DNA of 64,000 nucleotides, from positions 933 through 64,932 of the forward strand of contig JABDHI010000006.1 in NCBI GenBank assembly GCA_013285655.1, given 5' to 3'. Numbering within the stretch: the stretch's first letter is position 1; every line of letters starts with the position of its first letter. This document shows positions 1,013 through 51,186 of this stretch, piece by piece. Under the pieces are notes generated by a model. The model saw nothing but the letters and a program-made list of their open reading frames with translations. It was not told the origin of the DNA and did no database searches. A program made the translations under genes and the position numbers. Origin of the DNA: Bacteroidota bacterium (GTDB taxonomy: Bacteria; Bacteroidota; Bacteroidia; JABEUT01).

Positions 1013-1078
1013 TTAAATTTCACCTAAGCCATCTCTATAGTAAAAGAATACAAGATGAGATCAAATTAGATAGAGTAA

Positions 1079-1143
1079 CGACACGTGAGGTGAAGAGAGG
1101 CGATAATAGGAATGGACACATAGATGCAAAGCACTGTGCCAAA
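1079..1143 (-). repeat. AB-element, module A only
   Basis: CGACACGTGAGGTGAAGAG...GACACATAGATGCAAAGCACTGTGCC matches module A of the family listed below. Confidence 0.8.
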
Positions 1144-3295: not shown

Positions 3296-3468
3296 TTGGG
3301 CGTTTCCCTCGTGCCTCTGGTCGGGTCCCGCAATGCTGCGGGATCCTCGCTTCACTGCGGGCTTTCCGCTACTATCCCTAACGCAAACTACTATTGCACA
3401 AAATAACGGCACGTGAGGTGAAGAGAGAAAATGATAGGACTTGACACATAGATGTAAAGTACTGTGCC
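3296..3468 (-). repeat. AB-element, full copy (modules B+A on the reverse strand)
   Basis: TTGGGCGTTTCCC...CCCTAACGC (module B, rc) followed by CGGCACGTGAGGTGAAGAG...GACACATAGATG...CTGTGCC (module A, rc). Confidence 0.9.
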
Positions 3469-6420: not shown

Positions 6421-6667
6421 AGGGGTTTGGGGTAAAAAGGTTTTAAAAATAATAAATAATTACCTGAGCGTTCTTTAACAAAAGTTTGATGAAGATTTGG
6501 TGAGCAGGTTTAATTGCAAAAATTTCAACAAGGTGGTTTTTAACACTTTTTAAGAAATGCTGTGTTTTACCGCAGAGACGCAAAGGAGCAAAATTCCCGT
6601 CATTGCGAGGAACGAAGCAATCTTATCAAATTATGGTAGCCTTTATTCAAGGAAAATTTAAGATGAT

Positions 6668-7871: not shown

Positions 7872-8042
7872 GGCACAATTCTCTGCAACTATGTGTCCGT
7901 TTCTGTTATCGTCACTTTTCACCTCACGTGCCGTCACTTTGTGCGCTGGTATTTCGCGTTAGGGATGGCAGCGGTTACCCCGCAGCGCAGCGAGGAGTAA
8001 AAGCGTACAGCCCGACCCGACGTTAGGAGGGGAACGCCCAAG
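7872..8042 (+). repeat. AB-element, full copy
   Basis: GGCACAATTCTCTGCAACTATGTGTC...CACCTCACGTGCC, then a linker, then GCGTTAGGGATGGCAGCGGTTACCCCGCAGCGCAGCGAGGAG...GGGGAACGCCCAAG. Confidence 0.9.
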
Positions 8043-8238: not shown

Positions 8239-9339
8239 ATGGGAGCCATACCATTCAAACACTACTCGCTCGATGCACCCGATGCAGCCTGGGATGCAGA
8301 TGCCGAAATTGCCAAGGCCGGTACCGACGACCTGCGCGTTATGTGCGCCTGGGACGATGTTACCCGCCCTGAGCAGAAGAACGGCTACAAGCTGCCTCAC
8401 CACCGTGCCGATACATACCACACCAACCTCAAGGGCCTTATGGCCGCAGGCAATGCGCTGATGGGTGCACGTGGCGGCGTTGAAATACCGAAGTATGATT
8501 TAGATGCTGTGAAAGCGCATTTGCAAAAGCACTACCACGAGTTTGGCCGCACTGCTCCCTGGGAGAGCAAAGCCGAATGGCGCTGGTACCAAACCAAAAG
8601 CGCAGGCAACAACTCACTGAAAGATGTTGATACCACTGGCCGCACTGTTTGTGGATATTTTGCATCGTTCAACACCACGGACAGCGATGGCGATATGTTT
8701 GCACCCGGTTGCTTTGCCAAAAGCCTGAACGAAAACAGTAGTCGCATTATGCACCTGTTGCAACACAACACCCTGCAACCTATTGGCCGCCCCAGCTTGC
8801 TGAAAGAAGATAACACGGGTTTGTACTTCGAAACACCTATTGCTAAAACACAACTGGGCGATAATGTGTTACAACTTTACCGCGATGGTGTGTACAAGGA
8901 GCATAGCGTGGGCTTTGAGATGATAAACTCTTCAATCGAAGCCCTTCGACAAGCTCAGGGTGACCGTCATGTTGAGCCTGTCGAAACATCTGTAAATGTT
9001 ATTAAGGAGGCTAAGTTGTGGGAGGGCTCAACCGTTACCTGGGGAGCGAACCATAATACTCCGCTGGTTGGCATAAAATCAAATTACTCACTGCCCAATA
9101 CTCACTACTCACATCTAACATCACAGAATATTCTCGATGAGGCGCTGGAGCGCAGTTCGCTTATTTACAAGCAGCTGCACCGCGGCAACCTACACGATGA
9201 TACCTATACACTTTTAGAGATTGAGCTTAAGCAGTTACAGGCTCTTTTGGCAGCAAGGCCGTGCGATCACACTTTGCCCGCTTCAAACGATGCTGAGCTT
9301 AATGTGCTCAATAAGATCAATTCTTTGCTTAAACAATAA
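8239..9339 (+). CDS. phage prohead (capsid maturation) protease, HK97/S78 family, with an N-terminal extra domain and C-terminal coiled coil
   Basis: Protease core GRTVCGYFASFNTTDSDGDMFAPGCF...LLQHN...HSVGF...AKLWEGSTVTWGANHNT. The N-terminal KLPHH domain is common in phage protease fusions. The gene lies directly upstream of the capsid gene. Confidence 0.85.
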   Translation: MGAIPFKHYSLDAPDAAWDADAEIAKAGTDDLRVMCAWDDVTRPEQKNGYKLPHHRADTYHTNLKGLMAAGNALMGARGGVEIPKYDLDAVKAHLQKHYHEFGRTAPWESKAEWRWYQTKSAGNNSLKDVDTTGRTVCGYFASFNTTDSDGDMFAPGCFAKSLNENSSRIMHLLQHNTLQPIGRPSLLKEDNTGLYFETPIAKTQLGDNVLQLYRDGVYKEHSVGFEMINSSIEALRQAQGDRHVEPVETSVNVIKEAKLWEGSTVTWGANHNTPLVGIKSNYSLPNTHYSHLTSQNILDEALERSSLIYKQLHRGNLHDDTYTLLEIELKQLQALLAARPCDHTLPASNDAELNVLNKINSLLKQ

Positions 9340-9361
9340 AGGCATTATGATGACTTGGATA

Positions 9362-9532
9362 TGGCACAATCCTTTGCATCTATGTGTCAAGTCCTATCAT
9401 CTTCTCTCATCACCTCACGTGCCATTACTAAGGCGCGCTGGTGTTTCGCGTTAGGGATTGCAGTGGAAAGCCCGGAGTGTAGCGAGGACTTGTAACGTAA
9501 AGCCCGACCCGAGGAACGAGGGGAACGCCCAA
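9362..9532 (+). repeat. AB-element, full copy
   Basis: TGGCACAATCCTTTGCATCTATGTGTCAAG...CACCTCACGTGCC, then GCGTTAGGGATTGCAGTGGAAAGCCCGGAG...GGGGAACGCCCAAG. Confidence 0.9.
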
Positions 9533-9634
9533 GTAATAATGAATAGATTCTTCGCTTCACTCAGAATGACAAAAACTGAGATTGCTTCGTGCCTCGCAAT
9601 GACGAATACAGAAATAACAATTAAACACTGAACA

Positions 9635-10861
9635 ATGGAAAACAAACAAGTGGACGCTATCGTGAAAGAAATAAGCGATAACATAAACACCATAAAAACA
9701 AAAGGCGAAGCGCAAGATGCGCAGCTAAAATCGCTCGATGCTAAAATAGCAGCCAACCAATGGCAGCTGGGCGATAAATACGAGGCCCTGCGTAAGGACT
9801 TCGACCAGATGACTGCTATGCTTAAAAAAGGCAGAATATTTGGTGCTGCCGACCGGGGCATGACCGTAAAAGACTTACTGCATGCACAACGCGAAGGACT
9901 GGCGAGTCTGAGGAATAAAGCCGGCATACCGGTAAGCTTGTCGTTAAAGGCAAATCATTTATTTACCAAAACGGCAGGTAATGTTACCGAAGGTAGCAAC
10001 CTAATAGGCACTGATGCTATACCACCTACCAGGCTCGAAGGTATTTATTCGCAACCCTTAAGGCCGGTGCATATACGCCAGTTTATGAATACTACGGCTA
10101 CCGATAGTAACCAGATACTGTTTAACCAGTTGACCGGTGAAAACGACGGAAGTGGAAGCACAGCAGAAGGAGCCAGTGCGGCACAGAGCGACTTTACCAT
10201 TACCGCGCAAGAAGTGGTAGTACGTAAGCTGAACACTTACCTTACCATTAGTAAAGAAATGATGGAAGATGCCGACTTTGTAGATAACTACATTAACACC
10301 CACGTAGCCGGCCGCTTGCTGATGCAGGAAGATACCCAGATAATATCGGGTAACAACAGTGCGCCAAATTTGCAGGGTATTGCACCTATTGCATCGGCGT
10401 ATGCTAACCCAATTATTCCGGGTGCTACACCAAGCAGCATTAACTATTACGATGTGCTGCACCAGGCTGTTACCCAGGCTCGCGTGTTGTACTACACACC
10501 AAACTATATTATCATTCACCCGAACGATTATAACGCATTGGTGTTAAGCCGCGATAGTTATGGCCGTTACCAGTTTCCGCAAATGATAAGCGGAGCACCG
10601 GGCACCTTCTTTATTAACGGTGCGCAGGTTATTGCTAACACGGCTATGACACAGGGTTACTTCCTTGTCGGCGATTTTCAACTGGGTGCTACCCTTGCTT
10701 ACCGCGACGAGATAAACGTAACCTTCAGTAATCAGCACGTAGACAACTTTGTAAAGGGGTTTATTACTGTGCTTGTTGAAGAACGCCTTGCCAATGTGGT
10801 TTACCGACCAACCGCATTTGTGTATGGCAACTTTAACCAGGCGGAAGCTTCTGGCTCGTAA
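9635..10861 (+). CDS. phage major capsid protein, HK97 fold
   Basis: 408 aa with an N-terminal coiled-coil delta-like region, then sequence typical of HK97-family MCPs (LNTYLTISKEMMEDADFV...ISGNNSAPNLQGI...YIIIHPNDY). It follows the prohead protease. Confidence 0.85.
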   Translation: MENKQVDAIVKEISDNINTIKTKGEAQDAQLKSLDAKIAANQWQLGDKYEALRKDFDQMTAMLKKGRIFGAADRGMTVKDLLHAQREGLASLRNKAGIPVSLSLKANHLFTKTAGNVTEGSNLIGTDAIPPTRLEGIYSQPLRPVHIRQFMNTTATDSNQILFNQLTGENDGSGSTAEGASAAQSDFTITAQEVVVRKLNTYLTISKEMMEDADFVDNYINTHVAGRLLMQEDTQIISGNNSAPNLQGIAPIASAYANPIIPGATPSSINYYDVLHQAVTQARVLYYTPNYIIIHPNDYNALVLSRDSYGRYQFPQMISGAPGTFFINGAQVIANTAMTQGYFLVGDFQLGATLAYRDEINVTFSNQHVDNFVKGFITVLVEERLANVVYRPTAFVYGNFNQAEASGS

Positions 10862-10975: not shown

Positions 10976-11014
10976 GGCCGGGCTTTGTTCTTAGGGACGG
11001 GTCCGGCTTTTTTT
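10976..11014 (+). terminator. rho-independent terminator after the capsid gene
   Basis: GGCCGGGC...GTCCGGC stem followed by TTTTTTT. Confidence 0.55.
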
Positions 11015-11173
11015 ACAATTAAGAATTAAAAATTAAGAATTACGAATGAAAACGAGGGCGGTTTTTGTCCCCCGCTGGAGGGGGAAGTGGGAGGATTGAA
11101 CAAGCAAGCCGGTATTTTGCAGAAACAAGGATTTTTCGTAAATTTGTATAGGTTACTCATTAATTATATAGCC

Positions 11174-11705: not shown

Positions 11706-12641
11706 ATGAGGAAACCACTGTATATCATCTTAATATCTGTTTGCCTGTTGATACTTATTGCGTGCCAGCAAAAAAATGGGTTCACTAATAAAAATGAAGC
11801 TAAAAATGATATGGTTAATGGACTCAAAGAAGGTAAGTGGATTGAATATTGGGATTATAATCATTATGTAACTGATACTAATAAGGGATATGAAATATAC
11901 ATACTCACGATTTATAAAAAGGGTAAGCCATATGGTATAGTTCGAGAATATTATAAATGCGGAAAAATAGAACGAGAGATCCCTTATGTAAATGGAGTCG
12001 AGAAGTGGTATAGTGAAAACGGGTATGAGTGGGGTGAATACCCAACAATAAACGGTAAAAGGGATGGAATCGCTAAAGAGTATTTTAAGGGTATGTTAAC
12101 AAAGGAAGCCCCTTTTAATAATGGTAAGTTAAATGGAGTGGTAAAGGAATATATCGAAAGTGATAAAGTAATTAAAGAAACTCCTTATTCTAATGATGAT
12201 AAAAATGGAATTGAAAAATGGTATTACGAAAATGGTAAAGTTTTTAAAGTAGTTCCATATAAGAATGGGGTAAAGGATGGAATTGAAATTGTTTACGGTG
12301 AGAAAGGAGAAATTGAATCTAAGCATTCGTTTAAAAGGGGTTGCGAATACGGAACGGGAATAGATTATTATTACAATGGAAAGATTATGTATGAAGTGCC
12401 TTATATTATAGATAGTACAGTTGGAAGCTTTAGAAGTGAAATAAATGGCATTAAGAAAACCTATTATGAAAGTGGTGAGTTGAACTTTGAGATGCCTTTT
12501 ACCAAGGGTAACTTAAATGGAGAAGTAAAAGAATATTATAAAAATGGGAAATTAAAGTCTGAAACTAATTATAAGAATGGGGTGTTTGGTATACAAGGAA
12601 AAACAAAACACTATGACGAAATCGGTAACGAAATAAAATGA
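11706..12641 (+). CDS. YwqK/MORN-variant repeat lipoprotein, paralog 1
   Basis: Lipoprotein signal (LLILIAC), the shared N-terminal motif GFTNKNEAKNDMVNGLKEGKWIEY, and repeated NGxxxGxxKEYYxxGKL units. Confidence 0.8.
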   Translation: MRKPLYIILISVCLLILIACQQKNGFTNKNEAKNDMVNGLKEGKWIEYWDYNHYVTDTNKGYEIYILTIYKKGKPYGIVREYYKCGKIEREIPYVNGVEKWYSENGYEWGEYPTINGKRDGIAKEYFKGMLTKEAPFNNGKLNGVVKEYIESDKVIKETPYSNDDKNGIEKWYYENGKVFKVVPYKNGVKDGIEIVYGEKGEIESKHSFKRGCEYGTGIDYYYNGKIMYEVPYIIDSTVGSFRSEINGIKKTYYESGELNFEMPFTKGNLNGEVKEYYKNGKLKSETNYKNGVFGIQGKTKHYDEIGNEIK

Positions 12642-13372
12642 CCAAACCACTGTATATAACCTTACTTATTGCATTGCTTATAACCAGCTGCAAGCAAACG
12701 GCCAAAGAGTATTACAGTAACGGCATGCTAAAAAGTGAAGTTCTGCTATCGAATGGCGTAAAAGATGGAATAATGAAGGTATATACTGCTGATGGTAAGT
12801 TAAGAGCTGAGATACCTTATGTAGATGGAAAAGAAGAAGGTATTGGCAAATGGTATTGGGATGATGGCAAGATACAGATACTAATGCCTAAGAAAAACAA
12901 TAAAGCAAACGGAATAGTGAAGTGGTATTTCGAGAATGGAAACCTGAGCCAGGAGATACCCGACAGCGATGGTGTGAAGAACGGATTGGAGAAGCGCTAT
13001 TACGAGAGCGGTAAACTATTGGCAGAAACCATGTACAGCAACGGCGTTGAAAATGGTCCGGAGCGGGAGTATTTCGAGAATGGTAAATTGAAATTTGAGG
13101 TTACCAATAAGATGGGTAAGCGAGCCGGGCTATGCAAAACCTATTACGAAACCGGGTTTATAACAGAGACACCTTACATTGATAATGAAATAAGCGGTAC
13201 CGAGAAGATATATGATGCCAGTGGCAAGTTATTTCAGGAGACTGTATTTAAGGATGGTGATAAGGTTAGCGAAAAGTATTATAAAGATGGAAAGCTGGAT
13301 AGCGAAACCGATTACAGTAATGGTACAGAGACCGATCATAAAGAGTTTGATAAAAACGGCAATGAAAAGTAA
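12638..13372 (+). CDS. YwqK/MORN-variant repeat lipoprotein, paralog 2
   Basis: ATGA overlap with paralog 1, lipoprotein signal (LLITSC), and repeated G-x-K-x-G-x-x-K-x-Y-Y-x-x-G-K-L units. Confidence 0.8.
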   Translation: MTKPLYITLLIALLITSCKQTAKEYYSNGMLKSEVLLSNGVKDGIMKVYTADGKLRAEIPYVDGKEEGIGKWYWDDGKIQILMPKKNNKANGIVKWYFENGNLSQEIPDSDGVKNGLEKRYYESGKLLAETMYSNGVENGPEREYFENGKLKFEVTNKMGKRAGLCKTYYETGFITETPYIDNEISGTEKIYDASGKLFQETVFKDGDKVSEKYYKDGKLDSETDYSNGTETDHKEFDKNGNEK

Positions 13373-13494
13373 AATGAAACAGCCCTCTCCAAACCTCTCC
13401 CTCGAGGGAGAGGTTTTTGGAAAGAAAACTCCTTTAGTCCTCCCCTCTAGGGGAGGATTTAGGCGGGGCGAATTGGTAACGAAATAAAATAATT

Positions 13495-13872
13495 ATGAAG
13501 CTAAAGATAATAATACCTTGTTTTTTACTTCTTATGCCTGTTTTGGTGGTTGGACAAAAGGCCCACCATACCAAATATTTATATGCTGACAGTGGCTTTA
13601 CCAATAAAGCAGAGGCCAAGAACGTTACTATAAATGGTTTGAAGGATGGGAAATGGATGGAGTATTATAATCTTGAAACTAAAACATCAAATTCTAATCC
13701 TTATGAAACAACCATAAACGTACCAACTGCAGATACTAATGCCATGTATTATGATTTGGGTGTTTACAAAGCCGGCAAGCTAAATGGGGTAGTAAGATAC
13801 TACGAGAATAAAAGCAATAAGTATATGTTTTGGCATTATTTTATCAATGGTAAAAAAATAGAAAGCCGGTAA
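13495..13872 (+). CDS. YwqK/MORN-variant repeat protein, short/truncated paralog 3
   Basis: Signal peptide plus DSGFTNKAEAKNVTINGLKDGKWMEY; only 125 aa, so it may be a truncated copy. Confidence 0.6.
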   Translation: MKLKIIIPCFLLLMPVLVVGQKAHHTKYLYADSGFTNKAEAKNVTINGLKDGKWMEYYNLETKTSNSNPYETTINVPTADTNAMYYDLGVYKAGKLNGVVRYYENKSNKYMFWHYFINGKKIESR

Positions 13873-13956
13873 ATAAAGTAAAGCCTAAATGATAACCCTC
13901 GTTGACTACAATAACTTTTACGCTTCATACATGCGATATAAAATAATAAAATAACT

Positions 13957-14679
13957 ATGAAACTAAAAAAACTGATTACTTGCTCTTTATTACTTGCTCC
14001 TGCCTTTATGATGGCGCAGAAGCATATCCAACAACCACAATACCCCGATAGTGGCTTTATCAATAAAGCAGAGGCGAAGAACATAACCATAGATGGAAAA
14101 AAAGAAGGGATGTGGATCGATTATTTGGATTCATTGCGCAGACTTACTACAGATACCAATGCGCCGTATTATGCACTTAATGTATATAAGGCGGGTAAGT
14201 TTACTAAGCTTGAGCGCGGGTATTATAAAAGTGGAAAGTTGATGTTTCGCATACACTATGACAATGGCAGGGAAAATGGACGGGAAGAAAATTTTTATGA
14301 AGATGGGAAAGTAAGATCGGATGCTATGGTGATAAATGACACTTTGCATGGAACGGTTAAATTCTACTATCCTAATGGAAAAATGAAATCGCTTACTAAT
14401 TATTTTCACGGAATAAAAGTGGGAGAGGTTAAAGTTTATTATGAAAACGGCAATATACACCAGGAAGCTGAATATTCTGATGGTGTGCCGAATGGCACTG
14501 TTACCACATACTACGAAGATGGTAAGCTGAAAGATGTAGATACCTATGACAACGGTAATTTAAACGGGCTAAGCAAAATGTATTACGAAGATGGTAAGTT
14601 GGAACGTACAGTAAGTTATAACGAGGGTACACCGGGAGAAATTAAGAACTACGATGAAAACGGCAATGAAATAAAGTAG
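13957..14679 (+). CDS. YwqK/MORN-variant repeat protein, paralog 4
   Basis: Signal peptide, DSGFINKAEAKNITIDGKKEGMWIDY, MORN-like repeats, and C-terminal YDENGNEIK. Confidence 0.8.
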   Translation: MKLKKLITCSLLLAPAFMMAQKHIQQPQYPDSGFINKAEAKNITIDGKKEGMWIDYLDSLRRLTTDTNAPYYALNVYKAGKFTKLERGYYKSGKLMFRIHYDNGRENGREENFYEDGKVRSDAMVINDTLHGTVKFYYPNGKMKSLTNYFHGIKVGEVKVYYENGNIHQEAEYSDGVPNGTVTTYYEDGKLKDVDTYDNGNLNGLSKMYYEDGKLERTVSYNEGTPGEIKNYDENGNEIK

Positions 14680-14749
14680 CATGAATTGGCACATGAAACA
14701 TTGAAGTGTGTGCCATTATGTGCCAAAATTTAAACGAGCTAAAATAACT

Positions 14750-15220
14750 ATGAAACTAAAAGCAATAGTACTACCAGTATTTTTAATGGGTATCTCTGTA
14801 TCGGTGAAGGCCCAAAAGCATGCCCATACAGAAGCATACGATAGTGGCTTTACCAATAAAGCCGAAGCCAAAAACAAAATGGTGAATGGTAAAAAAGAAG
14901 GTAAGTGGGTGGAGGAATTTAAAAACACTGGAGATACTACAAAGCCAATTTATAGGTTAGCGGTTTATAAAAGTGGTAAGCTAAACGGCATTGCCAGGTA
15001 TTACTATGCTAATGGAACCGAATACGAAGAAGAAGCATACACCAATGGTACCAGGAATGGGGTTACTAAAGAATTTGATAGCCGTAAACACCTTGTAAAA
15101 GAAACTCCGTATATTAACGATACTATAAACGGAGTAGTTAAAGATTTTAATGCGGATGGAACACTTAAAAAAGAGACGTTGTATTATAAGGGGAAGGAAG
15201 GAATTTCGAAAAGCCACTAG
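14750..15220 (+). CDS. YwqK/MORN-variant repeat protein, paralog 5
   Basis: The internal ATG at 14750 gives signal peptide MKLKAIVLPVFLMGISVSVKAQ, followed by DSGFTNKAEAKNKMVNGKKEGKW. Confidence 0.75.
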   Translation: MKLKAIVLPVFLMGISVSVKAQKHAHTEAYDSGFTNKAEAKNKMVNGKKEGKWVEEFKNTGDTTKPIYRLAVYKSGKLNGIARYYYANGTEYEEEAYTNGTRNGVTKEFDSRKHLVKETPYINDTINGVVKDFNADGTLKKETLYYKGKEGISKSH

Positions 15221-15494
15221 GCCAATTAAGAATTAAAAATTAGTAATTAAGAATTGAGGAACAATGTTGAACCCAATAGTTTTAAGAGTCCCTTTAGGGG
15301 ATGGGATGAAAATGAAATACTTGATGAGAAGCTACACACATTTTTTCGACCTGTGTGCAATTGTGTGTAATGATAATTTATTAATGGAGTGAATGCTTTA
15401 CACAAATACCCTGTTTCGTGTAAAAATATGTAAAGTAAAAAGAAGTCATAAGTGGAAAGTTGTAAGTCGTTAGAGAAACAGTAAATTGTAGTTT

Positions 15495-15578
15495 GCGTTA
15501 GGGATAGAAGCGGTTACCCCGCAGCGCAGCGAGGAGTAAAAGCGGATAGCCCGACCGAGGAACGAGGGAACGCCCAAA
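15495..15578 (+). repeat. AB-element, module B only
   Basis: GCGTTAGGGATAGAAGCGGTTACCCCGCAGCGCAGCGAGGAGTAAAAGCGGATAGCCCGACC...GGGAACGCCCAAA. Confidence 0.9.
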
Positions 15579-15652
15579 TGAAATTAGAAATGAAAAGCTA
15601 AAAGTGAAAATTAAATAGGAAGGTCTTCGACAAGCTCAGACTGACAATATAT

Positions 15653-17230
15653 ATGAAACGCCCCTTAATATATACCATACTACTAACTACGCTGCTAATA
15701 AGCTGCCGTAACGATACGGGCTTTACAAACCCAAAGGAAGCTGAGAACATAGATATAATGGGGGTAAAGACAGGCAAATGGCTGGATAGGTTAGATAGTA
15801 ATTTCGAAATTACTAAAGATACCAACGCGCCTTTTTACAACCTGGTGTTTTACCGTGCGGGTAAAGCCAACGGAATGATACGCACCTATTACCGCGATGG
15901 TAAACTGCGGTGCGAATATGCGGCATGGGGTTACAGGCCAGATGATACGGTAAAGGTGTATTACGAAAGCGGAAAGATAAAATCGTTGATACCTTATGTG
16001 CACGATACCATTACAGGTACCACGCGAGATTTTTATAAGAACGGAAAACTGGAGCTGGAAATACCCCGTAAAAACGGGTTGTACGACGGGGTTACCAGGA
16101 AGTATTACCCCAATGGGCAGCTGGAGAAAGAGACTCCCTGCACCGATGATAATATTGACGGGCCCGAAAAGGCATATTACGAAAACGGCAAGCTGCAATA
16201 TGTGGCTCCGTATGTTGATGGTAAGCTAAATGGCAATTACACCGAGTATTACGAAAACGGAAAGGTAAAAGCCATTTCGCCTTATGTAAATGGTAAGCTT
16301 AACGGAATTAAAAAAGAATATGCCGACGACGGTGCCTTAAGCTACGAGGGCAACTACGAATTTGGTAACCGTACCGGCTTGGTTAAGTGGTATTACGCCC
16401 ATGGCAAACTGAGTGAAGATGCTATGTATAAGAATGATAGTGTGCAGGGTATAGTACATTGGTATGATACAAATGGCAAAGTTCAATATACGGCGACCTA
16501 TAAAAACGATGAAATTATAGACGGGAAATTTAAAAGCGATCCGGATGATGATGGAGATTATTCGATAGGTACTTATAAAAATGGTGCGTTGAATGGAACC
16601 ATGTACTGGTATTATGCCGATGGTAAAGTAGAAACAGAAGTGACCTATGTAGATGGTTTGGCACAAGGCATTAAAAAAGGCTTTTATGAGAATGGCAAAC
16701 CGAAGTTTACCCAGGCTATGAAAGATGATGATGTCAATGGCATTGCTATATTTTATAAGCCCGATGGAAGTGTAGATTATAAGTGTGTATATGACCTGGG
16801 CATTCCGGTAAGCGGAATTGAGCGCAGCAATTTCGAAAAAGGCGGAGAAGGAGCTTATACCGAAGCAACGTATGATAACAGTAAGCTTAATGGCAGTTTT
16901 AAATGGTTTTACCCTGATGGTAAGCTGGAGTGCCAGTGTATATATGTAAACGATAGCGTGCTAAGCGGTACTGCACGTAAAGACTATGATGAAGCAGATG
17001 GCGGTGGCTATACCGAAGCATGTTATGTAAATGGCAAACTTAATGGCGTTTACAAATGGTTTTACTCCGAAGGAAAATTGGCCGCCCAAATACCGTATAC
17101 CAACAATGTAGAAGATGGACTGGCTACTTTTTATTATAAAAGCGGTATAAAAAAAGAAGAAATACAGTGGAGGGACGGACGCCGTATGGCAGATGCCACA
17201 TATGATGAGCATGGCAAACTGATGAAGTAA
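15653..17230 (+). CDS. YwqK/MORN-variant repeat lipoprotein, long paralog 6
   Basis: 525 aa with lipoprotein signal (LLISC), GFTNPKEAENIDIMGVKTGKW, and about 18 MORN-like units. Confidence 0.8.
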   Translation: MKRPLIYTILLTTLLISCRNDTGFTNPKEAENIDIMGVKTGKWLDRLDSNFEITKDTNAPFYNLVFYRAGKANGMIRTYYRDGKLRCEYAAWGYRPDDTVKVYYESGKIKSLIPYVHDTITGTTRDFYKNGKLELEIPRKNGLYDGVTRKYYPNGQLEKETPCTDDNIDGPEKAYYENGKLQYVAPYVDGKLNGNYTEYYENGKVKAISPYVNGKLNGIKKEYADDGALSYEGNYEFGNRTGLVKWYYAHGKLSEDAMYKNDSVQGIVHWYDTNGKVQYTATYKNDEIIDGKFKSDPDDDGDYSIGTYKNGALNGTMYWYYADGKVETEVTYVDGLAQGIKKGFYENGKPKFTQAMKDDDVNGIAIFYKPDGSVDYKCVYDLGIPVSGIERSNFEKGGEGAYTEATYDNSKLNGSFKWFYPDGKLECQCIYVNDSVLSGTARKDYDEADGGGYTEACYVNGKLNGVYKWFYSEGKLAAQIPYTNNVEDGLATFYYKSGIKKEEIQWRDGRRMADATYDEHGKLMK

Positions 17231-17277
17231 ATAGTGTAAATGGTGAGTTGTAAATGAAATATCACCTAATGTGGTTC

Positions 17278-17377
17278 GCGTTAGGGATTGTAGTGGAAAG
17301 CCCGGAGCATAGCGAGGATCCCGCAGCATTGCGGGACCCGACCCGTCCCGAGTACTCGGGAGAGGGGAACGCCCAAG
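17278..17377 (+). repeat. AB-element, module B only
   Basis: GCGTTAGGGATTGTAGTGGAAAGCCCGGAG...CCCGCAGCATTGCGGG...TCCCGAGTACTCGGGA...GGGGAACGCCCAAG. Confidence 0.9.
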
Positions 17378-17431
17378 TAATTAAATGGAATAGATGCTTC
17401 ATTCTTCAGCATGACAAAAATGGAATAAGAA

Positions 17432-17980
17432 ATGAAAACCTTTGCAGAAACAGAAAGACTGATATTACGGGAGTTGGTAATGGCCGACGACCAGGGTATG
17501 TTTGAGCTCGACTCAGACCCGGAGGTGCACAAATACCTGGGCAACGAACCGGTTAAAACCATAGAACAAAGCCGCGATGCCATTAACTTTATAAGGAAAC
17601 AATATGAAGATAATGGCATTGGCCGCTGGGCGGTTATTGAAAAACAATCGGGTAAGTTTATAGGTTGGGCCGGCCTAAAACTTATTAAAGAACCTGTAAA
17701 CGGACACATTAACATACACGATGTTGGCTATAGGTTTATAAAGCAAGCCTGGGGCAAAGGCTATGCAACCGAAGCCGCTAAGGCTTGTATAAATTATGGG
17801 TTTAACACCCTTGGCCTAACCGAAATTTATGGTTTTGCCAATTTAGATAATGAAGCATCGAAGGCGGTATTGCAAAAGTGCGGCTTGGTATACCGCAACA
17901 ACTTTACCTTTGTGGGTATTGAGCACGCATGGTACGAGATTAAAAGCGTAGCTTTTAATCAATTAAAAATTAAGAATTAA
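17432..17980 (+). CDS. GNAT-family N-acetyltransferase (RimJ/RimL-like)
   Basis: ETERLILRE start, then ...GIGRWAVIEKQSGKFIGWAGL...GYRFIKQAWGKGYATEAAKACINYGF. Confidence 0.85.
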   Translation: MKTFAETERLILRELVMADDQGMFELDSDPEVHKYLGNEPVKTIEQSRDAINFIRKQYEDNGIGRWAVIEKQSGKFIGWAGLKLIKEPVNGHINIHDVGYRFIKQAWGKGYATEAAKACINYGFNTLGLTEIYGFANLDNEASKAVLQKCGLVYRNNFTFVGIEHAWYEIKSVAFNQLKIKN

Positions 17981-18068
17981 AAATTGCGAAACAATAATGA
18001 GTTCAATATTTAATAATTGAGATGGGATTAATTATAACATTTGCGTTTTTGCGGTAAAATAAATTAAA

Positions 18069-19268
18069 ATGAAAGCGATCTTATTTTTTTCACTTTTAGC
18101 GTTTCACTTTTCACTTTTAGCTCAATCAGGCGGTTTTACAAATAAAGCTGAAGCTGAGAACCATAAGATAGATACGGTTAAAGAAGGTAAGTGGATAGAG
18201 TATATAGATAGTACAGGCCATGTAACTACTGATGGGGCTGCGCCGGCTTATGTGCTTACCAATTATCATTTGGGTAAACCTGCAGGTGTTGTAAATGGCT
18301 TTTTCCGGAATGATGATGCTAAGCTTTTTGAACTGCCTTACATAAATGGTATGAAAAACGGTGTACAGAAAATATTTTACCATAGCGGGGCTCTCCATAT
18401 TGAAGTTCCGTTTACCAATGATACTGTTAATGGTATTAAAAAAGAATATTTAGAAAGTGGAATACTTGCACAAGAAACGACTTATAAAATGGGTATTCAG
18501 CATGGCCTCTTTAAAAAGTATTACGATAATGGCACTGTAAACTGGATAATTCCTTTTGTAAACGGTAAGATAGATGGCGTACAACGTGAATTTTATAAAA
18601 GCGGACTCCGCCAGGGGTTATTTGCTTTTGTGGGCGGTGTTGAAACCGGTGTTGACTCTCAGTTTTACGAAAGCGGAAAACCCCAATTTATTACACCTTT
18701 TGTAAATGGTAAAAAAAACGGTGTCGAAAAAGATTATTACCCGAGTGGAATACTTAAAGGTGAATACCCTTACCTGGATAATAAGACCGATGGCCTTGTA
18801 ATAGAGTACTACGAGAGCGGTAAACTAAAAAGCGAAAAGCCCTGCAAGCAAGATCAGATAAACGGTACTGAAAAAGATTATTACGAAAGCGGTTTGCTAA
18901 AGGCTGAGTTTCCATACAGCAACGGTGTATCTAATGGTATTGTTAAAGAATATTATGAAAGCGGTAAGCTGAAATACGAAACGCCTATAACCAATGGTAA
19001 AAAAAATGGTGTCGAAAAAGACTATTACGAAAGCGGTATACTTAAAGGCGAATTTCCGGTGACTGATGGTAAAACCAATGGACTTGTAAAGCAGTATTAC
19101 GAAGACGGCAAACTACAATTTGAAGCACCATATACATTAGATAAACGAAACGGAACAGCCAAAGAATATTATGAGAATGGGAAAGTAAAATCTGAAATAC
19201 CCTATACCAACGACATTATTAGCGGCCCTGTAAAGAGCTATGATGTTAATGGCGCCCCAATCAATTAA
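18069..19268 (+). CDS. YwqK/MORN-variant repeat protein, paralog 7
   Basis: Signal peptide, GGFTNKAEAENHKIDTVKEGKWIEY, and about 13 regular NGxKxGxxKxYYESGxLK units. Confidence 0.8.
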   Translation: MKAILFFSLLAFHFSLLAQSGGFTNKAEAENHKIDTVKEGKWIEYIDSTGHVTTDGAAPAYVLTNYHLGKPAGVVNGFFRNDDAKLFELPYINGMKNGVQKIFYHSGALHIEVPFTNDTVNGIKKEYLESGILAQETTYKMGIQHGLFKKYYDNGTVNWIIPFVNGKIDGVQREFYKSGLRQGLFAFVGGVETGVDSQFYESGKPQFITPFVNGKKNGVEKDYYPSGILKGEYPYLDNKTDGLVIEYYESGKLKSEKPCKQDQINGTEKDYYESGLLKAEFPYSNGVSNGIVKEYYESGKLKYETPITNGKKNGVEKDYYESGILKGEFPVTDGKTNGLVKQYYEDGKLQFEAPYTLDKRNGTAKEYYENGKVKSEIPYTNDIISGPVKSYDVNGAPIN

Positions 19269-19302
19269 AAATTACGAATTAAAAATTAAGAATGCGGCGT
19301 TT

Positions 19303-19422
19303 GTCATTGCGAGGAACGAAGTTGTTTTTATAATCCCGACCAATTGTGGCGGGGCAATCTCAAAGCAAATACTCAGACTGCCACATCCGCCCCGAGCACT
19401 CGTGGCCGGACCCGCAGTGACG
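19303..19422 (+). repeat. C-element (~110-120 nt nested-hairpin repeat)
   Basis: The first ~60 nt are nearly identical to 27878-27940 (GTCATTGCGAGGAACGAAGTTGTTTTTATAATCCCGACCAATTGTGGCGGGGCAATCTCAA). The ends GTCATTGCGA / TCGCAGTGAC are inverted. Confidence 0.85.
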
Positions 19423-20759: not shown

Positions 20760-20877
20760 TCGTTAGTCAATGATTGTCATTGCGAGGAACGAAGCAATCC
20801 CCTTGGGGCTCATCAGGATCTTTGAAAAATAAATAGAGAACCGAATAATCTCAACGCAAATAAAGTTGATTTGGTTT

Positions 20878-21059
20878 TGGCACAATCCTTTGCAACTATG
20901 TGTCAAGTTCTAACATCGAATCTCTTCACCTCACGTGCCGTTACCCTTGTGCAATGGTAGTTTGCGTTAGGGATAGTAGCGGTTACCCCGCAGCGCAGCG
21001 AGGAGTAAAAGCGAATAGCCCGACCCGTCCCGAGTACTCGGGAGAGGGGAACGCCCAAA
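20878..21059 (+). repeat. AB-element, full copy (reference copy)
   Basis: TTGGCACAATCCTTTGCAACTATGTGTCAAG...CACCTCACGTGCC, a linker, then GCGTTAGGGATAGTAGCGGTTACCCCGCAGCGCAGCGAGGAGTAAAAGCGAATAGCCCGACCCGTCCCGAGTACTCGGGAGAGGGGAACGCCCAAA. Confidence 0.9.
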
Positions 21060-21810: not shown

Positions 21811-22010
21811 TTGGGCGTTTCCCCAAGCTGCGCAAGGGGTCGGGCTATTCGCTGCAAGTCCTCGTTTCACTGCGGGCTTTCCGCTGCTATCTCTAACGCA
21901 AACAGCCCTAACGACTAATGACTGTCGACTAACTACTGCAAAGCTACGGCACGTGAGGTGAAGAGATTCGATGATAGGAATGGACACATAGATGCAGAGT
22001 ACTGTGCCAA
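21811..22010 (-). repeat. AB-element, full copy with an expanded linker
   Basis: Modules B and A in reverse orientation. The linker carries extra CGACTAATGACTGTCGACTAAC word repeats. Confidence 0.9.
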
Positions 22011-27222: not shown

Positions 27223-27831
27223 ATGGCACTTACCGAATTAAAAATAGTAACACCTCCGGCGACTGAGTTGGCTCTTGCCACCGTCAAGAGTTATTTGCGC
27301 GTTGATTTTACCGACGACGATACCACTCTCGGTTTGTTGATTCAATCAGCGCGAGAAAGAGCAGAGCAATACTGCAACCGCTCATTTATAACCCAGACGC
27401 TGGAGGCATACTACGATAAAATAGAAAAGAACTTCACCCTGCCACGTGCGCCCATACAAAGTGTAAGCACCGTTAAACTTATTTACCTGAACGAGGTAAG
27501 TACGCTTACCCAAAATGCCGACTACTATGTTATGGGGAACCAGGATCAATGGTTGACTATTACAGCCACTACGTATAACCTGCCTCCCGGCTTTTCTCCC
27601 GGCGATGATTTAAGTAGGTATCACCTTGATGTAACCTATACTGCCGGTTATGGCAGTTCATGGACGAGTGTACCCATGGGCATACAAGAAGCTATTATGA
27701 AAATGGTTGGTGCCGCTTATGAAGTACGTGAAGATGTTGCACAACTCAGTAATAAAGGCATAAGCAATCTTATGGAGATACCCAATGATGCAAAAAGCCT
27801 TTTGAATGCATACAGAGTAGTTCCTTTATAA
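27223..27831 (+). CDS. phage head-tail connector (gp6-like / DNA-packaging) protein
   Basis: N-terminal signature LALATVKSYLRVDFTDDDTTLGLLIQSARERAEQYCNRSFITQT, typical of the gp6-like head-tail connector family. Confidence 0.75.
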   Translation: MALTELKIVTPPATELALATVKSYLRVDFTDDDTTLGLLIQSARERAEQYCNRSFITQTLEAYYDKIEKNFTLPRAPIQSVSTVKLIYLNEVSTLTQNADYYVMGNQDQWLTITATTYNLPPGFSPGDDLSRYHLDVTYTAGYGSSWTSVPMGIQEAIMKMVGAAYEVREDVAQLSNKGISNLMEIPNDAKSLLNAYRVVPL

Positions 27832-27877
27832 TTAAAAATGAAAAATTACGAATTACGAATGAAAGCAACAAAAGATC

Positions 27878-27987
27878 GTCATTGCGAGGAACGAAGTTGT
27901 TTTTATAATCCCGACCAATTGTGGCGGGGCAATCTCAATGCAAACGCTAAGGCTGCCACGCCCGCAAAAGCCGGGTTCGCAGTGACG
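27878..27987 (+). repeat. C-element (second copy)
   Basis: See 19303-19422. This copy is itself nested between the inverted word repeats AATTACGAATTACGAAT (27846-27862) and ATTCTTAATTCTTAAT (27996-28011). Confidence 0.85.
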
Positions 27988-39421: not shown

Positions 39422-39668
39422 TTGGCACAATCCTGTACATCTATGTGTCAATTTTCTATCATTGTTTCTCTTCACCTCACGTGCCGTTACAATTCTTAAT
39501 TTTTAATCGTAATTCTTAATTGGCTATGCCCCATGTGCCGTTACAATTCCTAATTTTTAATTCGTGATTCTTAATTGGCTATGCCTCACGTGCCATGTCT
39601 TTCTGCGTTAGGGATAGCAGCGTATAGCCCGACCCGTCCCGAGTACTCGGGAGAGGGGAACGCCCAAG
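39422..39668 (+). repeat. AB-element, expanded copy (tandem ~53-bp duplication in the linker, module B internally deleted)
   Basis: Module A, then 2x GTGCCGTTACAATTC.TAATTTTTAAT.CGT.ATTCTTAATTGGCTATGCC, then GCGTTAGGGATAGCAGCG-[deletion]-TATAGCCCGACCCGTCCCGAGTACTCGGGAGAGGGGAACGCCCAAG. Confidence 0.85.
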
Positions 39669-42879: not shown

Positions 42880-43323
42880 ATGATAAATAAAATTAAAAGA
42901 ACCGGATGGCTGTTTGCAATATGTATACTAGTGTTTAGCAGCTGCAGTAATAACTCATATAACAAAATGACTAACGAGAAATTGATTAAAGACTATTACG
43001 CCGCTTACGAGCAAAAAGACTGGAACATGTTAACGGGCCTATTGGCAGATGGCTTTGTATTTAATAGCCCTAACGACGACCATATTGATTTAGCAACCTA
43101 TAAGCAACGCTGCTGGCCAAACTCTGCCAGCATTAAAAAGTTCGATATTGATAAAATGGTAATTGATGGCGATGATGCCTTTGTAACGTATAATGGCCAT
43201 ACCAACGATGGCAGAATATTCCGCAATACGGAGTATTTTAGGTTTGTTGACGGTAAAATAAAAGAGAATGCCTGTTACTTTGGCCCGGGTATTAGTTACC
43301 CCGATAATAAGGCGGCCAAATAA
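42880..43323 (+). CDS. SnoaL-like / NTF2-fold lipoprotein
   Basis: Lipobox VFSSCSNN; KLIKDYYAAYEQKDWNMLTGLLADGFVFNSP is a typical SnoaL-like start. Confidence 0.7.
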   Translation: MINKIKRTGWLFAICILVFSSCSNNSYNKMTNEKLIKDYYAAYEQKDWNMLTGLLADGFVFNSPNDDHIDLATYKQRCWPNSASIKKFDIDKMVIDGDDAFVTYNGHTNDGRIFRNTEYFRFVDGKIKENACYFGPGISYPDNKAAK

Positions 43324-43331
43324 GTTAAAAG
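43191..43331 (+). repeat. 141-bp direct repeat, copy 1 (native 3' end of the SnoaL-like gene)
   Basis: 135 of 141 positions are identical to 43971-44111. Confidence 0.95.
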
Positions 43332-43622: not shown

Positions 43623-43973
43623 ATGCGTTTTAAAACCGACGAAAACTTACCATCTGATTTAGCCGAACTGCTTAAGCAGGAAGGTCATAATGCTTTTACT
43701 GTAAACCAGCAAAAAATGCAGGGCTACAAAGATGATGACCTGATAAAGGTTTGTAAGCATGAAAAGAGAGCATTAATAACCCTTGATACTGACTTTTCTG
43801 ATATTCGCAGATACCCGCCAAAAGAGTATCATGGAATAATAGTATTGCGTTCTGCCAATCAATCAAAGGCTGTAATTATGGCACTTATGCATAGAGTACT
43901 ACCACAATTAAAGCTAGAAAAGCTTACTGGTGCATTATGGATTGTGGAAGAAAACAAAATACGGATTAGATAA
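43623..43973 (+). CDS. DUF5615-family PIN-like putative toxin
   Basis: MRFKTDENLPSDLAELLKQEGHNAFTV...DDDLIKVCKHEKRALITLDTDFSDI, paired with DUF433 across a 2-nt gap. Confidence 0.7.
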   Translation: MRFKTDENLPSDLAELLKQEGHNAFTVNQQKMQGYKDDDLIKVCKHEKRALITLDTDFSDIRRYPPKEYHGIIVLRSANQSKAVIMALMHRVLPQLKLEKLTGALWIVEENKIRIR

Positions 43974-44111
43974 TGGCCATACCAACGGTGGCAGAATATT
44001 CCGCAATACGGAGTATTTTAGGTTTGTTGACGGTAAAATAAAAGAGAACGCCTGTTACTTTGGCCCGGGTATTAGTTACCCTGATAATAAAGTGGCGAAA
44101 TAAGTTAAAAG
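43971..44111 (+). pseudogene. 141-bp direct repeat, copy 2: orphan duplicate of the SnoaL-like gene 3' end
   Basis: Encodes only NGHTNGGRIFRNTEYFRFVDGKIKENACYFGPGISYPDNKVAK*. Its first three bases supply the toxin stop codon. Confidence 0.9.
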
Positions 44112-44170: not shown

Positions 44171-44272
44171 AATGGCACGTGAGGCATAGTTAATTAAGAA
44201 TTTGGAATCAACGCAGGGAGTAAAGGCACGTGAGGTGATAAGAAGTTGACACATAGTCGCAGATTTCTGGGA
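44171..44272 (-). repeat. degenerate AB-element fragment (module A + linker words)
   Basis: AATGGCACGTGAGGCATAGTTAATTAAGAAT and GGCACGTGAGGTGATAAGAAGTTGACACATAG match module A and the 39570-39595 linker in reverse. Confidence 0.7.
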
Positions 44273-46763: not shown

Positions 46764-46939
46764 TTGGCACAGTACTCTACATCTATGTGTCAAGTTCTAT
46801 CATCGTATCTCATCACCTCACGTGCCATGGCACTGTGCTCTGGTTTTTTGCGTTAGGGATAGAAGCGGTTACCCCGCAGCGCAGCGAGGAGTATGAGCGG
46901 ATAGCCCGACCCCTTGCGTAGCTTGGGGGAACGCCCAAA
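46764..46939 (+). repeat. AB-element, full copy
   Basis: TTGGCACAGTACTCTACATCTATGTGTCAAG...CACCTCACGTGCC, then GCGTTAGGGATAGAAGCGGTTACCCCGCAGCGCAGCGAGGAG...GGGGGAACGCCCAAA. Confidence 0.9.
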
Positions 46940-48482: not shown

Positions 48483-48713
48483 TTGGGTGTTTCCCCTCGT
48501 GCCTCGGGTCGGGCTTTACGCTCATACTCCTCTCCGCCAACTGGCGGATGCCGGGTAACCGCTACACCGGCGAAGCCTGCATGAGTTCAATAATAAATAA
48601 ACGAACACGAATAATCCCTAACGCGAAATACCAGCGCGCCTTAGTAACGGCACGTGAGGTGAAAAGATTCGATGACAGGATTTGACACATAGATGTAAAG
48701 GATTGTGCCAAAG
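48483..48713 (-). repeat. AB-element, full copy with a ~60-nt insertion inside module B
   Basis: TTGGGTGTTTCCCCTCGTGCC...[insert]...CCCTAACGC then CGGCACGTGAGGTGAAAAG...GACACATAGATG...TTGTGCCAAAG. Confidence 0.85.
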
Positions 48714-50532: not shown

Positions 50533-51186
50533 TTATAGAACAGGTACCTGATGTACTCGAAGCTCCAAATTGTTATTTAAACCTGCCAAATAACAAACAT
50601 AATCGCTATCGATGTTTAATTTCTTCAGGTGCCAATGTTGCTGCTTGTAGCTTACTTTATCTCCGCTACAGTCCAGTTGTTGAGGCTCATTTGCAATGCC
50701 AATACCTATTGCTTTTAATACGGCTTCTTTACGTACCCAGGTATCAATAAGGGTTTCTTTACCGGGGTTCTTTAAAATCACTTCTTGTTCTTGATTGGAG
50801 AAAAAGTTTGTTGTTGAATCGGTATCTATCTCCCCATCTAGTTTTTCAATATCAATGCCTAACTCAGAATCTCCGCCATAAACCAATACCACCATATCTT
50901 CGGAATGAGAAATGTTGAACGGCATCCAATCCTTAATAAAAGGCTTTTCGTTCTTGTTCCTTTCCAATGTCAATAACAATTCAGCGGTAAAGCCAGATTC
51001 ACTAATAGCCTTCCGGAGCAATAGTTTGCCAATTAGGTTTCTCAGTTTATCCTTAAAAACGCGCATCCTGTTAATCTCCTGAATGAAGTTAGCAGGCAAT
51101 GTTTTCAGGTGTTCATCAAACGCGGCCTCGTTAAACTCGCGGATATCATAATGCAATACTGTAACAGTTCCTTTTTGTAAATGCAT
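50533..51186 (-). CDS. 4'-phosphopantetheinyl transferase (Sfp type)
   Basis: FNISHSEDMVVLV and WVRKEAVLKAIGIG motifs. The ATG overlaps the NRPS stop codon (TAATG), implying translational coupling. Confidence 0.8.
   Translation of the reverse strand: MHLQKGTVTVLHYDIREFNEAAFDEHLKTLPANFIQEINRMRVFKDKLRNLIGKLLLRKAISESGFTAELLLTLERNKNEKPFIKDWMPFNISHSEDMVVLVYGGDSELGIDIEKLDGEIDTDSTTNFFSNQEQEVILKNPGKETLIDTWVRKEAVLKAIGIGIANEPQQLDCSGDKVSYKQQHWHLKKLNIDSDYVCYLAGLNNNLELRVHQVPVL

Follow-up and report, generated by a model that had tools for sequence, protein, structure and literature searches.

A 64,000-nucleotide stretch of the genome of a Bacteroidota bacterium (GenBank assembly GCA_013285655.1, contig JABDHI010000006.1, positions 933 to 64,932; hereafter the window, to which all positions refer unless a related locus, numbered with an L, is named) contains a dispersed repeat, the AB element, which is composed of a module A and a module B and is exemplified by the focal copy at 20878-21058. 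The AB ensemble is non-coding, intergenic, orientation-unbiased, mosaic, old and turning over. Module B, which folds as a three-way junction and is, judged by its sequence, a member of the Flavo-1 family (RF01705), is also carried by phages and plasmids. AB is read here, with a probability of roughly 0.55, as a mosaic repeat of the REP/BIME/BOX kind in which a folded single strand of module B is the recognised entity. The descriptive part of this account is held with high confidence and the mechanistic part at about one in three. The structured half of the element was already catalogued; the extended fold, the fusion to a lineage-specific box, the mosaic behaviour and the presence in single-stranded DNA (ssDNA) phages and tailed phages are new here.

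An abundant intergenic repeat

A preliminary description of the window had listed 12 full or partial copies of the element, and all 12 were recovered with the same coordinates and strands: eight A+B copies, two copies of module B only and two copies of module A that were solitary or degenerate (Table 1). The copy at 17278 had been called B-only; module B is present, yet a mutated remnant of the A tail, TCACCTAATGTGG, lies just upstream. The A box TCACCTCACGTGCC occurred 10 times in the window with two mismatches or fewer, against 0.18 expected from shuffles, and GGGGAACGCCCAA occurred 12 times against 1.19 expected, with 10 of the 12 at the reported copies and the other two being two-mismatch matches elsewhere. 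Exact occurrences of GCGTTAGGGAT numbered nine. An eight-way alignment of the copies gave a single family whose ends are sharply defined near (T)TTGGCACA and AACGCCCAA, and a covariance model of module B run on the window returned exactly 10 B copies. Eight of the 10 A copies and eight of the 10 B copies were joined. Pairwise identity over the full length of the window copies was 55-82 %, and the closest pairs by module A differed from the closest pairs by module B.

No copy was located inside an open reading frame (ORF). In co-directional intergenic regions, on crude ORF calls, module B was sense in 16 cases and antisense in 14, and module A was sense in 16 and antisense in 28. The claim of a genuine, abundant, non-coding intergenic repeat in both orientations was borne out. 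A sense bias of B seen in a first set (12:4) was gone with more copies and was a small-sample effect; in the window alone, all five copies between co-directional genes were sense.

Module B folds as a three-way junction

Module B extends from GCGTT to AACGCCC(AA), over approximately 85-110 nt, and its three-way junction was derived by hand from 20 copies. A single A comes after the closing helix P1 (GCGUU/AACGC). The long, irregular hairpin P2 starts with GGG/CCC, a bulged A and G and two pairs, continues through a 3x3 loop GNA/GNA, GC/GC and a second 3x3 loop, and ends in three to four pairs, CC/GG and a GC-GNA-GC tip; both 3x3 GNA/GNA loops are conserved. The junction strand 3' of P2 is GA, and P3 is a variable hairpin closed by CCC/GGG and followed by one unpaired base.

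This model was supported by covariation in three sets of sequences. In the 20-copy alignment, 98.6 % of cells were paired, compared with 26-47 % when the 3' partners were slid, and seven of the 22 pairs changed on both sides. Among 54 distinct B copies, taken from the window and from metagenome contigs related to it, pairing was 97.2 % (30-49 % slid) with nine of 22 pairs double-sided, and among 65 distinct copies from viral contigs it was 98.1 % (25-52 % slid) with 16 of 22 double-sided, P1 included. In the viral copies, the pair beside the bulge occurred as U-A, G-C, A-U and C-G, the four Watson-Crick types. Covarying pairs within the Flavo-1 hairpin were 22/74, 27/69, 31/65 and 33/63. The proposal that the GCGTT and AACGC ends pair to close a domain was confirmed by relatives carrying GCGUC/GACGC, GCGCA/UGCGC, GCGAA/UUCGC and GCGUG/CACGC. 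The block substitutions taken previously to define subfamilies turned out to be compensatory changes of one helix (UUAC/GUAA versus AAG/CUU versus AAC/GUU).

The view of module B as a structured domain that GCGTT/AACGC closes and whose slots can take alternative hairpins holds. These hairpins either occupy P3 or lie at the P2 tip, the places where the structured element tolerates variation in length. The palindrome TCCCGAGTACTCGGGA was present in three copies (17346, 21028 and 39637) instead of the four originally counted, and the hairpin TCCCGCAGCATTGCGGGA was present in two, as reported. Both belong to a group of tiny palindromic units at fixed slots of B, together with CCTGCCTGTCGGCAGACAGG, which has a possible GCC duplication. 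A further insertion of approximately 47 nt (TATTCGTG...GAACTCATGAGGGCTTCGCCGTTG) recurs at the same point of B, directly after GGGAT, in the window (48569-48620, minus strand) and in L002, L007, L012, L016 and L026.

For some copies, including the focal one (z = -3.05), thermodynamic folding alone recovered the B model, and the top strand folded better than its complement (mean z approximately -1.2 versus -0.1). G.U plus U.G pairs outnumbered A.C plus C.A mismatches by 28:13 and 10:1, counts that take in related sequences and a model-fitted alignment and are suggestive only. This excess of wobble pairs over mismatches indicates that one of the two strands is the constrained one, and module B is constrained to fold as a single strand. 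Several window copies have lost one strand of P2.

Module B is the Flavo-1 motif

A relaxed Rfam scan of the whole window gave Flavo-1 as all five best matches, each to the full model on the B strand, with 28.3-34.9 bits; the other five B copies were not reported by the Flavo-1 model scan. None of the window copies reached the gathering cut-off of 42 bits, and a B relative in a viral contig, L093, scored 52.2 bits, above the cut-off. B aligns along the whole model (1-76), with the hairpin <<<-<<---<<---<<<<...>>>>--->>--->>->>> and the conserved letters GAU.G.AGCGG / AGCG.A.AGC..GA supported by covariation. The published seed alignment holds GCGUUAGGGAU...AGCCCGACC sequences, including Bacteroides plasmid loci, and rows such as NC_006873.1/806-733 and NC_009441.1/2016697-2016781 read GCGU(U/G)AGGGAU...GGAUAGCCCGACC. 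Such rows come from Flavobacterium johnsoniae, F. psychrophilum, Gramella and the Bacteroides plasmids NC_006873 and NC_004703. On the basis of the sub-threshold matches, the sequence shared with the published seed and the relative above the cut-off, module B is assigned to Flavo-1. The element had been presented as unclassified, with a match to an Rfam family named as what would speak against that status, and such a match is essentially what was found for B. In the window and in 18 viral loci, every other Rfam family stayed below its cut-off, and Flavo-1 alone was returned at relaxed thresholds.

B shares with Flavo-1 (RF01705; PMC2864571) the order GGG-A-UN, 3x3 GNA/GNA loop, GC/GC, second 3x3 loop and variable tip, the conserved letters GCGUUAGGGAU...AGCG.A.AGCCCGACC and the phylum, and the seed includes a plasmid locus that matches the window B at 81 %. 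It differs in being joined here to a lineage-specific module A and in carrying nested hairpin inserts. The published consensus structure consists of the hairpin (P2) only, with P1 and P3 absent from the model. However, the flanks of the published seed sequences, in the same supplement, contain P3 hairpins and a closing helix in which GCGUG/CACGC replaces GCGUU/AACGC, which indicates that the three-way junction is general in this subtype and was omitted by the published model.

The original description of Flavo-1 (Weinberg et al. 2010, PMC2864571) states only its occurrence, and no function is given in the literature. Rfam classes the family as 'Gene; sRNA' (small RNA). In the F. psychrophilum transcriptome, Flavo-1 matches were found sense or antisense to transcribed regions, with many outside them (PMC9723704).

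Flavo-1 calls for a Bacteroidota host, and the window has genes for SprB repeats with a type IX secretion (T9SS) sorting domain, TonB, PAP2 and many MORN-variant proteins, while the A pattern occurs in Bacteroidetes and Bacteroidia metagenome-assembled genomes (MAGs). A cyanobacterial element of the small dispersed repeat or Nezha type was ruled out by the genome scan and these Bacteroidota marker domains.

Module A and its combination with module B

Module A comprises approximately 65-85 nt. Alignment of 60 copies showed two invariant boxes, CTATGTGTC and TCACCTCACGTG(CC), approximately 21-24 nt apart, and a less conserved 5' end, TTTGGCACA(A/G)T. No conserved structure was detected in these 60 copies (RNAalifold, -2.35 kcal/mol, 0 compensatory pairs), so that the reading as a structured repeat fails for this half and A is constrained in sequence only. 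A sigma-54 promoter at the start of A (TGGCAC...TTGC) was rejected, the spacing being GG-N11-GC and not GG-N10-GC and the G being replaced by A in four of nine window copies. Inspection of A and the linker by eye on both strands revealed no Bacteroidota promoter (TTTG...TAnnTTTG), the nearest sequence, TATGTGTC, having two mismatches at key positions, and no conserved terminator or promoter could be recognised by eye in A, in the linker or in the sequence flanking B. AT-rich units starting with ATGGG or ATAGAAGG were found inserted at CACGT|G of the A box, and the one in L016 is flanked by repeated CCTCACGT, a possible 8-bp target duplication.

The A pattern was found in 28 stretches of a species genome set and 75 of a metagenome set (a small set of samples), and in no viral contig or plasmid. 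Among 185,579 species genomes it was confined to two Bacteroidetes MAGs (JABCZW01 and JABDCA01), one Bacteroidia MAG and one short contig of 2.3 kb from an Alphaproteobacteria MAG, which is probably mis-binned.

In related DNA selected by A, a full A stood directly upstream on the same strand in 36 of 54 B copies, and no full-length A was found in another arrangement. A was absent from the remaining 18 of the 54 B copies; a few B copies had an inverted A fragment upstream instead. B was absent from 54 of 90 A copies, which were followed by AT-rich runs, GTCACTGCGAG...GGCAGTCTCA or GAGATTGCTTCG...CGCAATGACGAA. The element had been conceived as one bipartite unit, whereas A and B are separable modules with very different distributions, and AB is a frequent, directional combination of the two that is not indivisible.

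A wider set of modules fills the intergenic DNA alongside A and B, including AT-rich AATTNNNAATT runs, GTCATTGCGAGG...GCAATC hairpins and small palindromic inserts. An AT-rich module of AATTAAGAATTAAAAATTACGAATTA-type 11-12-nt units was observed at or near gene stop codons, in AB linkers and in related MAGs. A second dispersed hairpin module, GTCATTGCGAGGAACGAAG(CAATC) with its complement GAGATTGCTTCG..CGCAATGACGAA, often adjoins AB copies, and a related GTCACTGCGAG...GGCAGTCTCA module was seen in MAG loci.

Turnover at orthologous sites

Orthologous intergenic regions of related genomes differed in module content. L020 is syntenic with the window at 70-83 % identity. L013 has B-A at a site where the window has other modules, and L164 carries an AB copy where L132 has none, with differing combinations in the two at a neighbouring site. 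Target-site duplications were found neither at eight window copies nor at the filled and empty sites of L164 and L132, whose flanks have diverged. Short-read contigs carrying a window protein start less than approximately 80 nt from an AB copy, and the repeat apparently causes assembly breaks.

Module B on phages and plasmids

The pattern GCGTTAGGGATNNNAG...AGCCCGACC was found in 70 IMG/VR contigs, in none of which the A pattern occurred. Twenty-one of these were Microviridae (F-type capsid, Rep and pilot protein), in at least seven lineages, with B intergenic near the Rep or pilot gene, 10 in sense and 11 in antisense. In one microvirus lineage, B lies approximately 20 nt upstream of Rep in 23 of approximately 26 relatives, down to 78 % Rep identity, and two relatives retain only its first 15-20 nt; B is long-lived but dispensable in this lineage. 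In tailed phages, B was either sense, upstream of the small terminase gene, or antisense, abutting the stop codon of a 565-residue protein. Phage copies were often located 20-230 nt upstream of terS or Rep genes, in sense. A search of GenBank phages with the L093 form of B matched one microvirus, and a search of them with the window form gave no match. The window B matched 26 Bacteroides/Phocaeicola plasmids at an unannotated spot (81 % over 63 nt), of which 25 were typed as conjugative and one as mobilizable.

The microvirus intergenic region upstream of B (L103 1700-1875 and relatives) contains further hairpins with AGCGTAGCGA, one of which, GTTAAACAAAGCGTAGCGACTTTAAC, has the same GCGNAGC tip as P2 of B. 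B shows no sequence relationship to the dif-like attachment sites of Bacteroidetes microviruses (PMC3091885). Two IMG/VR contigs with B elements of 64-71 % G+C (L037 and L064) hold four to five diverged B-like copies per approximately 10 kb, which suggests that the Flavo-1/B family reaches beyond low-GC Bacteroidota.

Coordinates and neighbouring features

Table 1. Positions of the AB copies, their parts and accompanying modules (window coordinates unless a locus is named)
Feature	Position	Strand	Remarks
Focal module A	20878-20945	+	Invariant boxes CTATGTGTC and TCACCTCACGTGCC, no conserved structure (alignments)
Focal linker	20946-20963	+	GTTACCCTTGTGCAATGGTAGTTT type; length variable among copies; takes extra insertions
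Focal module B	20964-21058	+	Flavo-1-type three-way junction; covariation model equals minimum-free-energy fold, z = -3.05
Focal B, P1	20964-20968 with 21050-21054	+	
Focal B, P2	20970-21021	+	
Focal B, J2/3 (GA)	21022-21023	+	
Focal B, P3	21024-21026 with 21046-21048	+	Holds palindromic insert 21028-21043
A+B copy	7872-8041	+	A 7872-7937, B 7956-8041
A+B copy	9362-9532	+	A 9362-9428, B 9448-9532; between prohead protease and capsid genes; Flavo-1 34.9 bits
A+B copy	39423-39667	+	Linker with duplicated AT-rich plus 'TATGCCTCACGTGCC' sub-module; B 39605-39667, P2 internally deleted
A+B copy	46765-46938	+	B 46850-46938
A+B copy	3296-3468	-	B 3296-3384; hairpin TCCCGCAGCATTGCGGGA in place of P2 3' strand
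A+B copy	21811-22010	-	Linker insertion; B 21811-21899
A+B copy	48483-48712	-	B 48483-48624; ~47-nt insertion inside B after GGGAT
B-only copy	15495-15577	+	Part of linker retained; Flavo-1 33.6 bits
B copy with A-tail remnant	17262-17376	+	Both nested hairpins present
A-only copy	1075-1143	-	
Degenerate A, 5'-truncated, with second A-tail unit	44174-44257	-	
Nested palindromes	17346-17361, 21028-21043, 39637-39652; 3326-3343, 17319-17336; approx. L003 5840-5860, L009 4090-4110		
A-box AT-rich inserts	L016 2845-2935; L011 3866-3924 and 5571-5640; L008 3940-3960; window 39491-39594		
AT-rich AATTAAGAATTAAAAATTACGAATTA-type module	11012-11051, 15219-15258, 17956-17995, 19258-19297, 27825-27864		
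GTCATTGCGAGGAACGAAG(CAATC) module	6596-6617, 9585-9606, 19300-19321, 20773-20794, 27875-27896		

An HK97-type prohead protease gene (Peptidase_S78) and a major capsid gene were found at 8239-10861 in an otherwise chromosomal context, with AB copies upstream of the protease gene and in the gap that separates it from the capsid gene; among the ORFs scanned, neither a terminase nor a portal was identified near them. A 142-nt direct duplication (43190-43331 and 43970-44111, 96 % identity) adjoins the degenerate A copy. A cluster of paralogous MORN-repeat-variant proteins (11706-19268) is the source of most coding direct repeats in the window, and an ORF of 2346 residues (51186-58226, minus strand) has 300-nt internal repeats at 52362-52661 and 55509-55808 that are 72 % identical.

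A mosaic repeat with a folded module

The short non-coding modules of BOX in Streptococcus pneumoniae and of BIME/REP in enterobacteria are combined in variable order between genes in either orientation, have hairpin potential and exist as many diverged copies with no transposase of their own. AB is likewise confined to intergenic DNA, modular, present in either orientation, hairpin-capable and diverged. It is not related to them in sequence. In place of a simple palindrome it has B, a three-way junction whose non-canonical loops are conserved; no RAYT-type partner was identified here, and B is also present on phages and plasmids. REP systems have a RAYT/HUH partner, and no transposase was found among approximately 25 window ORFs scanned. 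Small dispersed repeats of Nostoc were reportedly described by Elhai and colleagues in 2008 as nested in MITE-like hosts (MITE, miniature inverted-repeat transposable element). In both cases, a larger repeat has defined slots that short palindromes of 16-20 nt either enter or replace; AB differs in phylum and sequences and in that its slots are the tips of covariation-supported helices.

By analogy with REP/BIME or pneumococcal BOX mosaics, AB may be maintained as a non-autonomous repeat that is tolerated only between genes and could be inserted or rearranged either way round. Host-encoded machinery acting in trans would spread and reshuffle it, and the folded single-stranded B would be the recognised substrate. 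The recognised strand would more likely be DNA, exposed in replication, conjugation or ssDNA-phage replication, than a dedicated transcript. We infer that AB does not encode a protein and that it is not an sRNA gene complete in itself. For the folded B, we lean weakly towards DNA over RNA because there is no transcriptional orientation bias, because untranscribed Flavo-1 matches have been published, and because of the replicons with a single-stranded phase and the P2 tip. This tip, GCGNAGC, we take to be an unusually stable DNA mini-hairpin motif.

Several observations weigh against this account. Neither a mobilising enzyme nor a target-site duplication was found, the terminal inverted repeats found did not exceed approximately 6-7 nt (TTTGGC/GCCCAAA), and there were no near-identical copies indicating recent movement, so that the mobility of AB is deduced from its distribution only. 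Covariation and wobble tolerance suit RNA and ssDNA equally, and the orientation statistics depend on crude ORF calls. In approximately half of the microvirus contigs, B is on the strand that is neither packaged nor of mRNA sense; no strand-specific role in DNA or RNA fits these antisense copies, which are best read as passengers. Conversely, the retention of B upstream of Rep in 23 of approximately 26 relatives hints at some benefit over pure parasitism.

Alternative explanations

The best-surviving alternative, to which about one chance in four is given, is that B acts as RNA, either as a multicopy sRNA with A as its promoter or as a cis element on neighbouring mRNAs (a 5'/3' stabiliser, processing site or protein-binding site), with the repeat kept for this RNA function. 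It agrees with the Rfam class, the strong covariation, the conserved non-canonical GNA/GNA loops, which are typical of protein-binding RNAs, the excess of G.U over A.C on one strand and the better folding of the top strand. It also agrees with the constant position of A upstream of B on the same strand where both are present, the sense copies upstream of terS and Rep genes in phages and the five of five sense copies in the window. There is, furthermore, a precedent in Bacteroides, where the multicopy sRNA family FopS is also phage-borne and has its own sigma-ABfr promoters, a single-stranded seed and a Rho-independent terminator (PMC11697453). AB is likewise a multicopy, non-coding Bacteroidota family with phage members, but identity with FopS was rejected since the architecture differs and none of its promoter, seed and terminator features was seen in AB. 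The larger set of copies showed no orientation bias (16 sense versus 14 antisense), no conserved Bacteroidota promoter or terminator was visible by eye around A, the linker or B, and F. psychrophilum matches occur in both senses with many untranscribed (PMC9723704); on these three points the earlier suggestion of a non-coding RNA gene is unsupported. The RNA explanation is further weakened by the microvirus contigs, half of which carry B antisense to all genes, as does one tailed-phage group, and by the loss of one P2 strand in several window copies.

In a bolder form of the DNA interpretation, which we regard as improbable, the Flavo-1/B junction would be a structure-specific ssDNA element common to Bacteroidota chromosomes, Microviridae, tailed phages and conjugative plasmids and recognised by a host primase, HUH nuclease or Xer-like recombinase. 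If true, this would add a new class to the mobile or priming elements made of folded DNA, and it would account for an 'sRNA' family that ranks among the most abundant orphans in Rfam.

It is unlikely that B is primarily a functional ssDNA signal of mobile replicons, for complementary-strand priming (ssi/sso-like) or as a folded recombination site, with the chromosomal copies being secondary. Such a signal would fit the 21 Microviridae contigs with B in a hairpin-rich intergenic region beside the Rep gene, the 26 plasmids, which enter cells as single strands, the GCGNAGC tip and the tolerance of G.T on one strand only. However, B occurs in both orientations in Microviridae, where only one strand is ever single-stranded, has been deleted in some close microvirus relatives, is also found in double-stranded tailed phages, and reaches approximately one copy per 5-10 kb in chromosomes, far above any priming need. 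An integron attC site was rejected by eye, as B has GTT 5' and AAC 3', the reverse of the attC core arrangement.

A classical MITE, that is, an internally deleted insertion sequence (IS) derivative moved by cut-and-paste through the transposase of that IS acting on terminal inverted repeats, is very unlikely despite the many intergenic copies in both orientations, the short imperfect inverted termini TTTGGC...GCCCAAA, the close inverted pairs of A at two loci (L005 and L008) and the differences in site occupancy between species. The inverted termini are imperfect and 6-7 nt long, against the roughly 10 bp or more expected, no target-site duplication was present at eight window copies or at the filled and empty site, and neither approximately 1.1 Mb of related DNA nor the plasmid collection yielded an IS with A and/or B at its boundaries. 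Copies 55-82 % identical do not indicate a recent burst, and A and B occur independently with very different taxonomic ranges. Likewise, neither the plasmid matches nor the loci retrieved from genome, metagenome and viral collections contained an autonomous IS with shared ends. A parent IS was rejected as the ORFs enclosed by inverted pairs of A and by inverted pairs of B look ordinary and are not transposases; judged from sequence, they are short in L136 and GNAT- and cupin-like in L148 and L185. A PATE or omega-RNA derived from IS200/IS605 was dismissed, the A end having no conserved hairpin and there being no Rfam match but Flavo-1, and a literature search for the core sequence strings returned nothing relevant.

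Implications for the Flavo-1 family

The AB repeat accounts for spurious small ORFs in genome annotation. Flavo-1 is among the most numerous orphan Rfam families and has been without a proposed function since 2010. To this family are added a longer, closed three-way junction, its occurrence as a dispersed mosaic repeat, its presence on ssDNA and tailed phages and on conjugative plasmids, and a second box to which it is joined in one lineage. Whether Flavo-1 acts as RNA or as folded DNA is directly testable in cultured hosts, with Flavobacterium johnsoniae and the Bacteroides plasmids as available systems.

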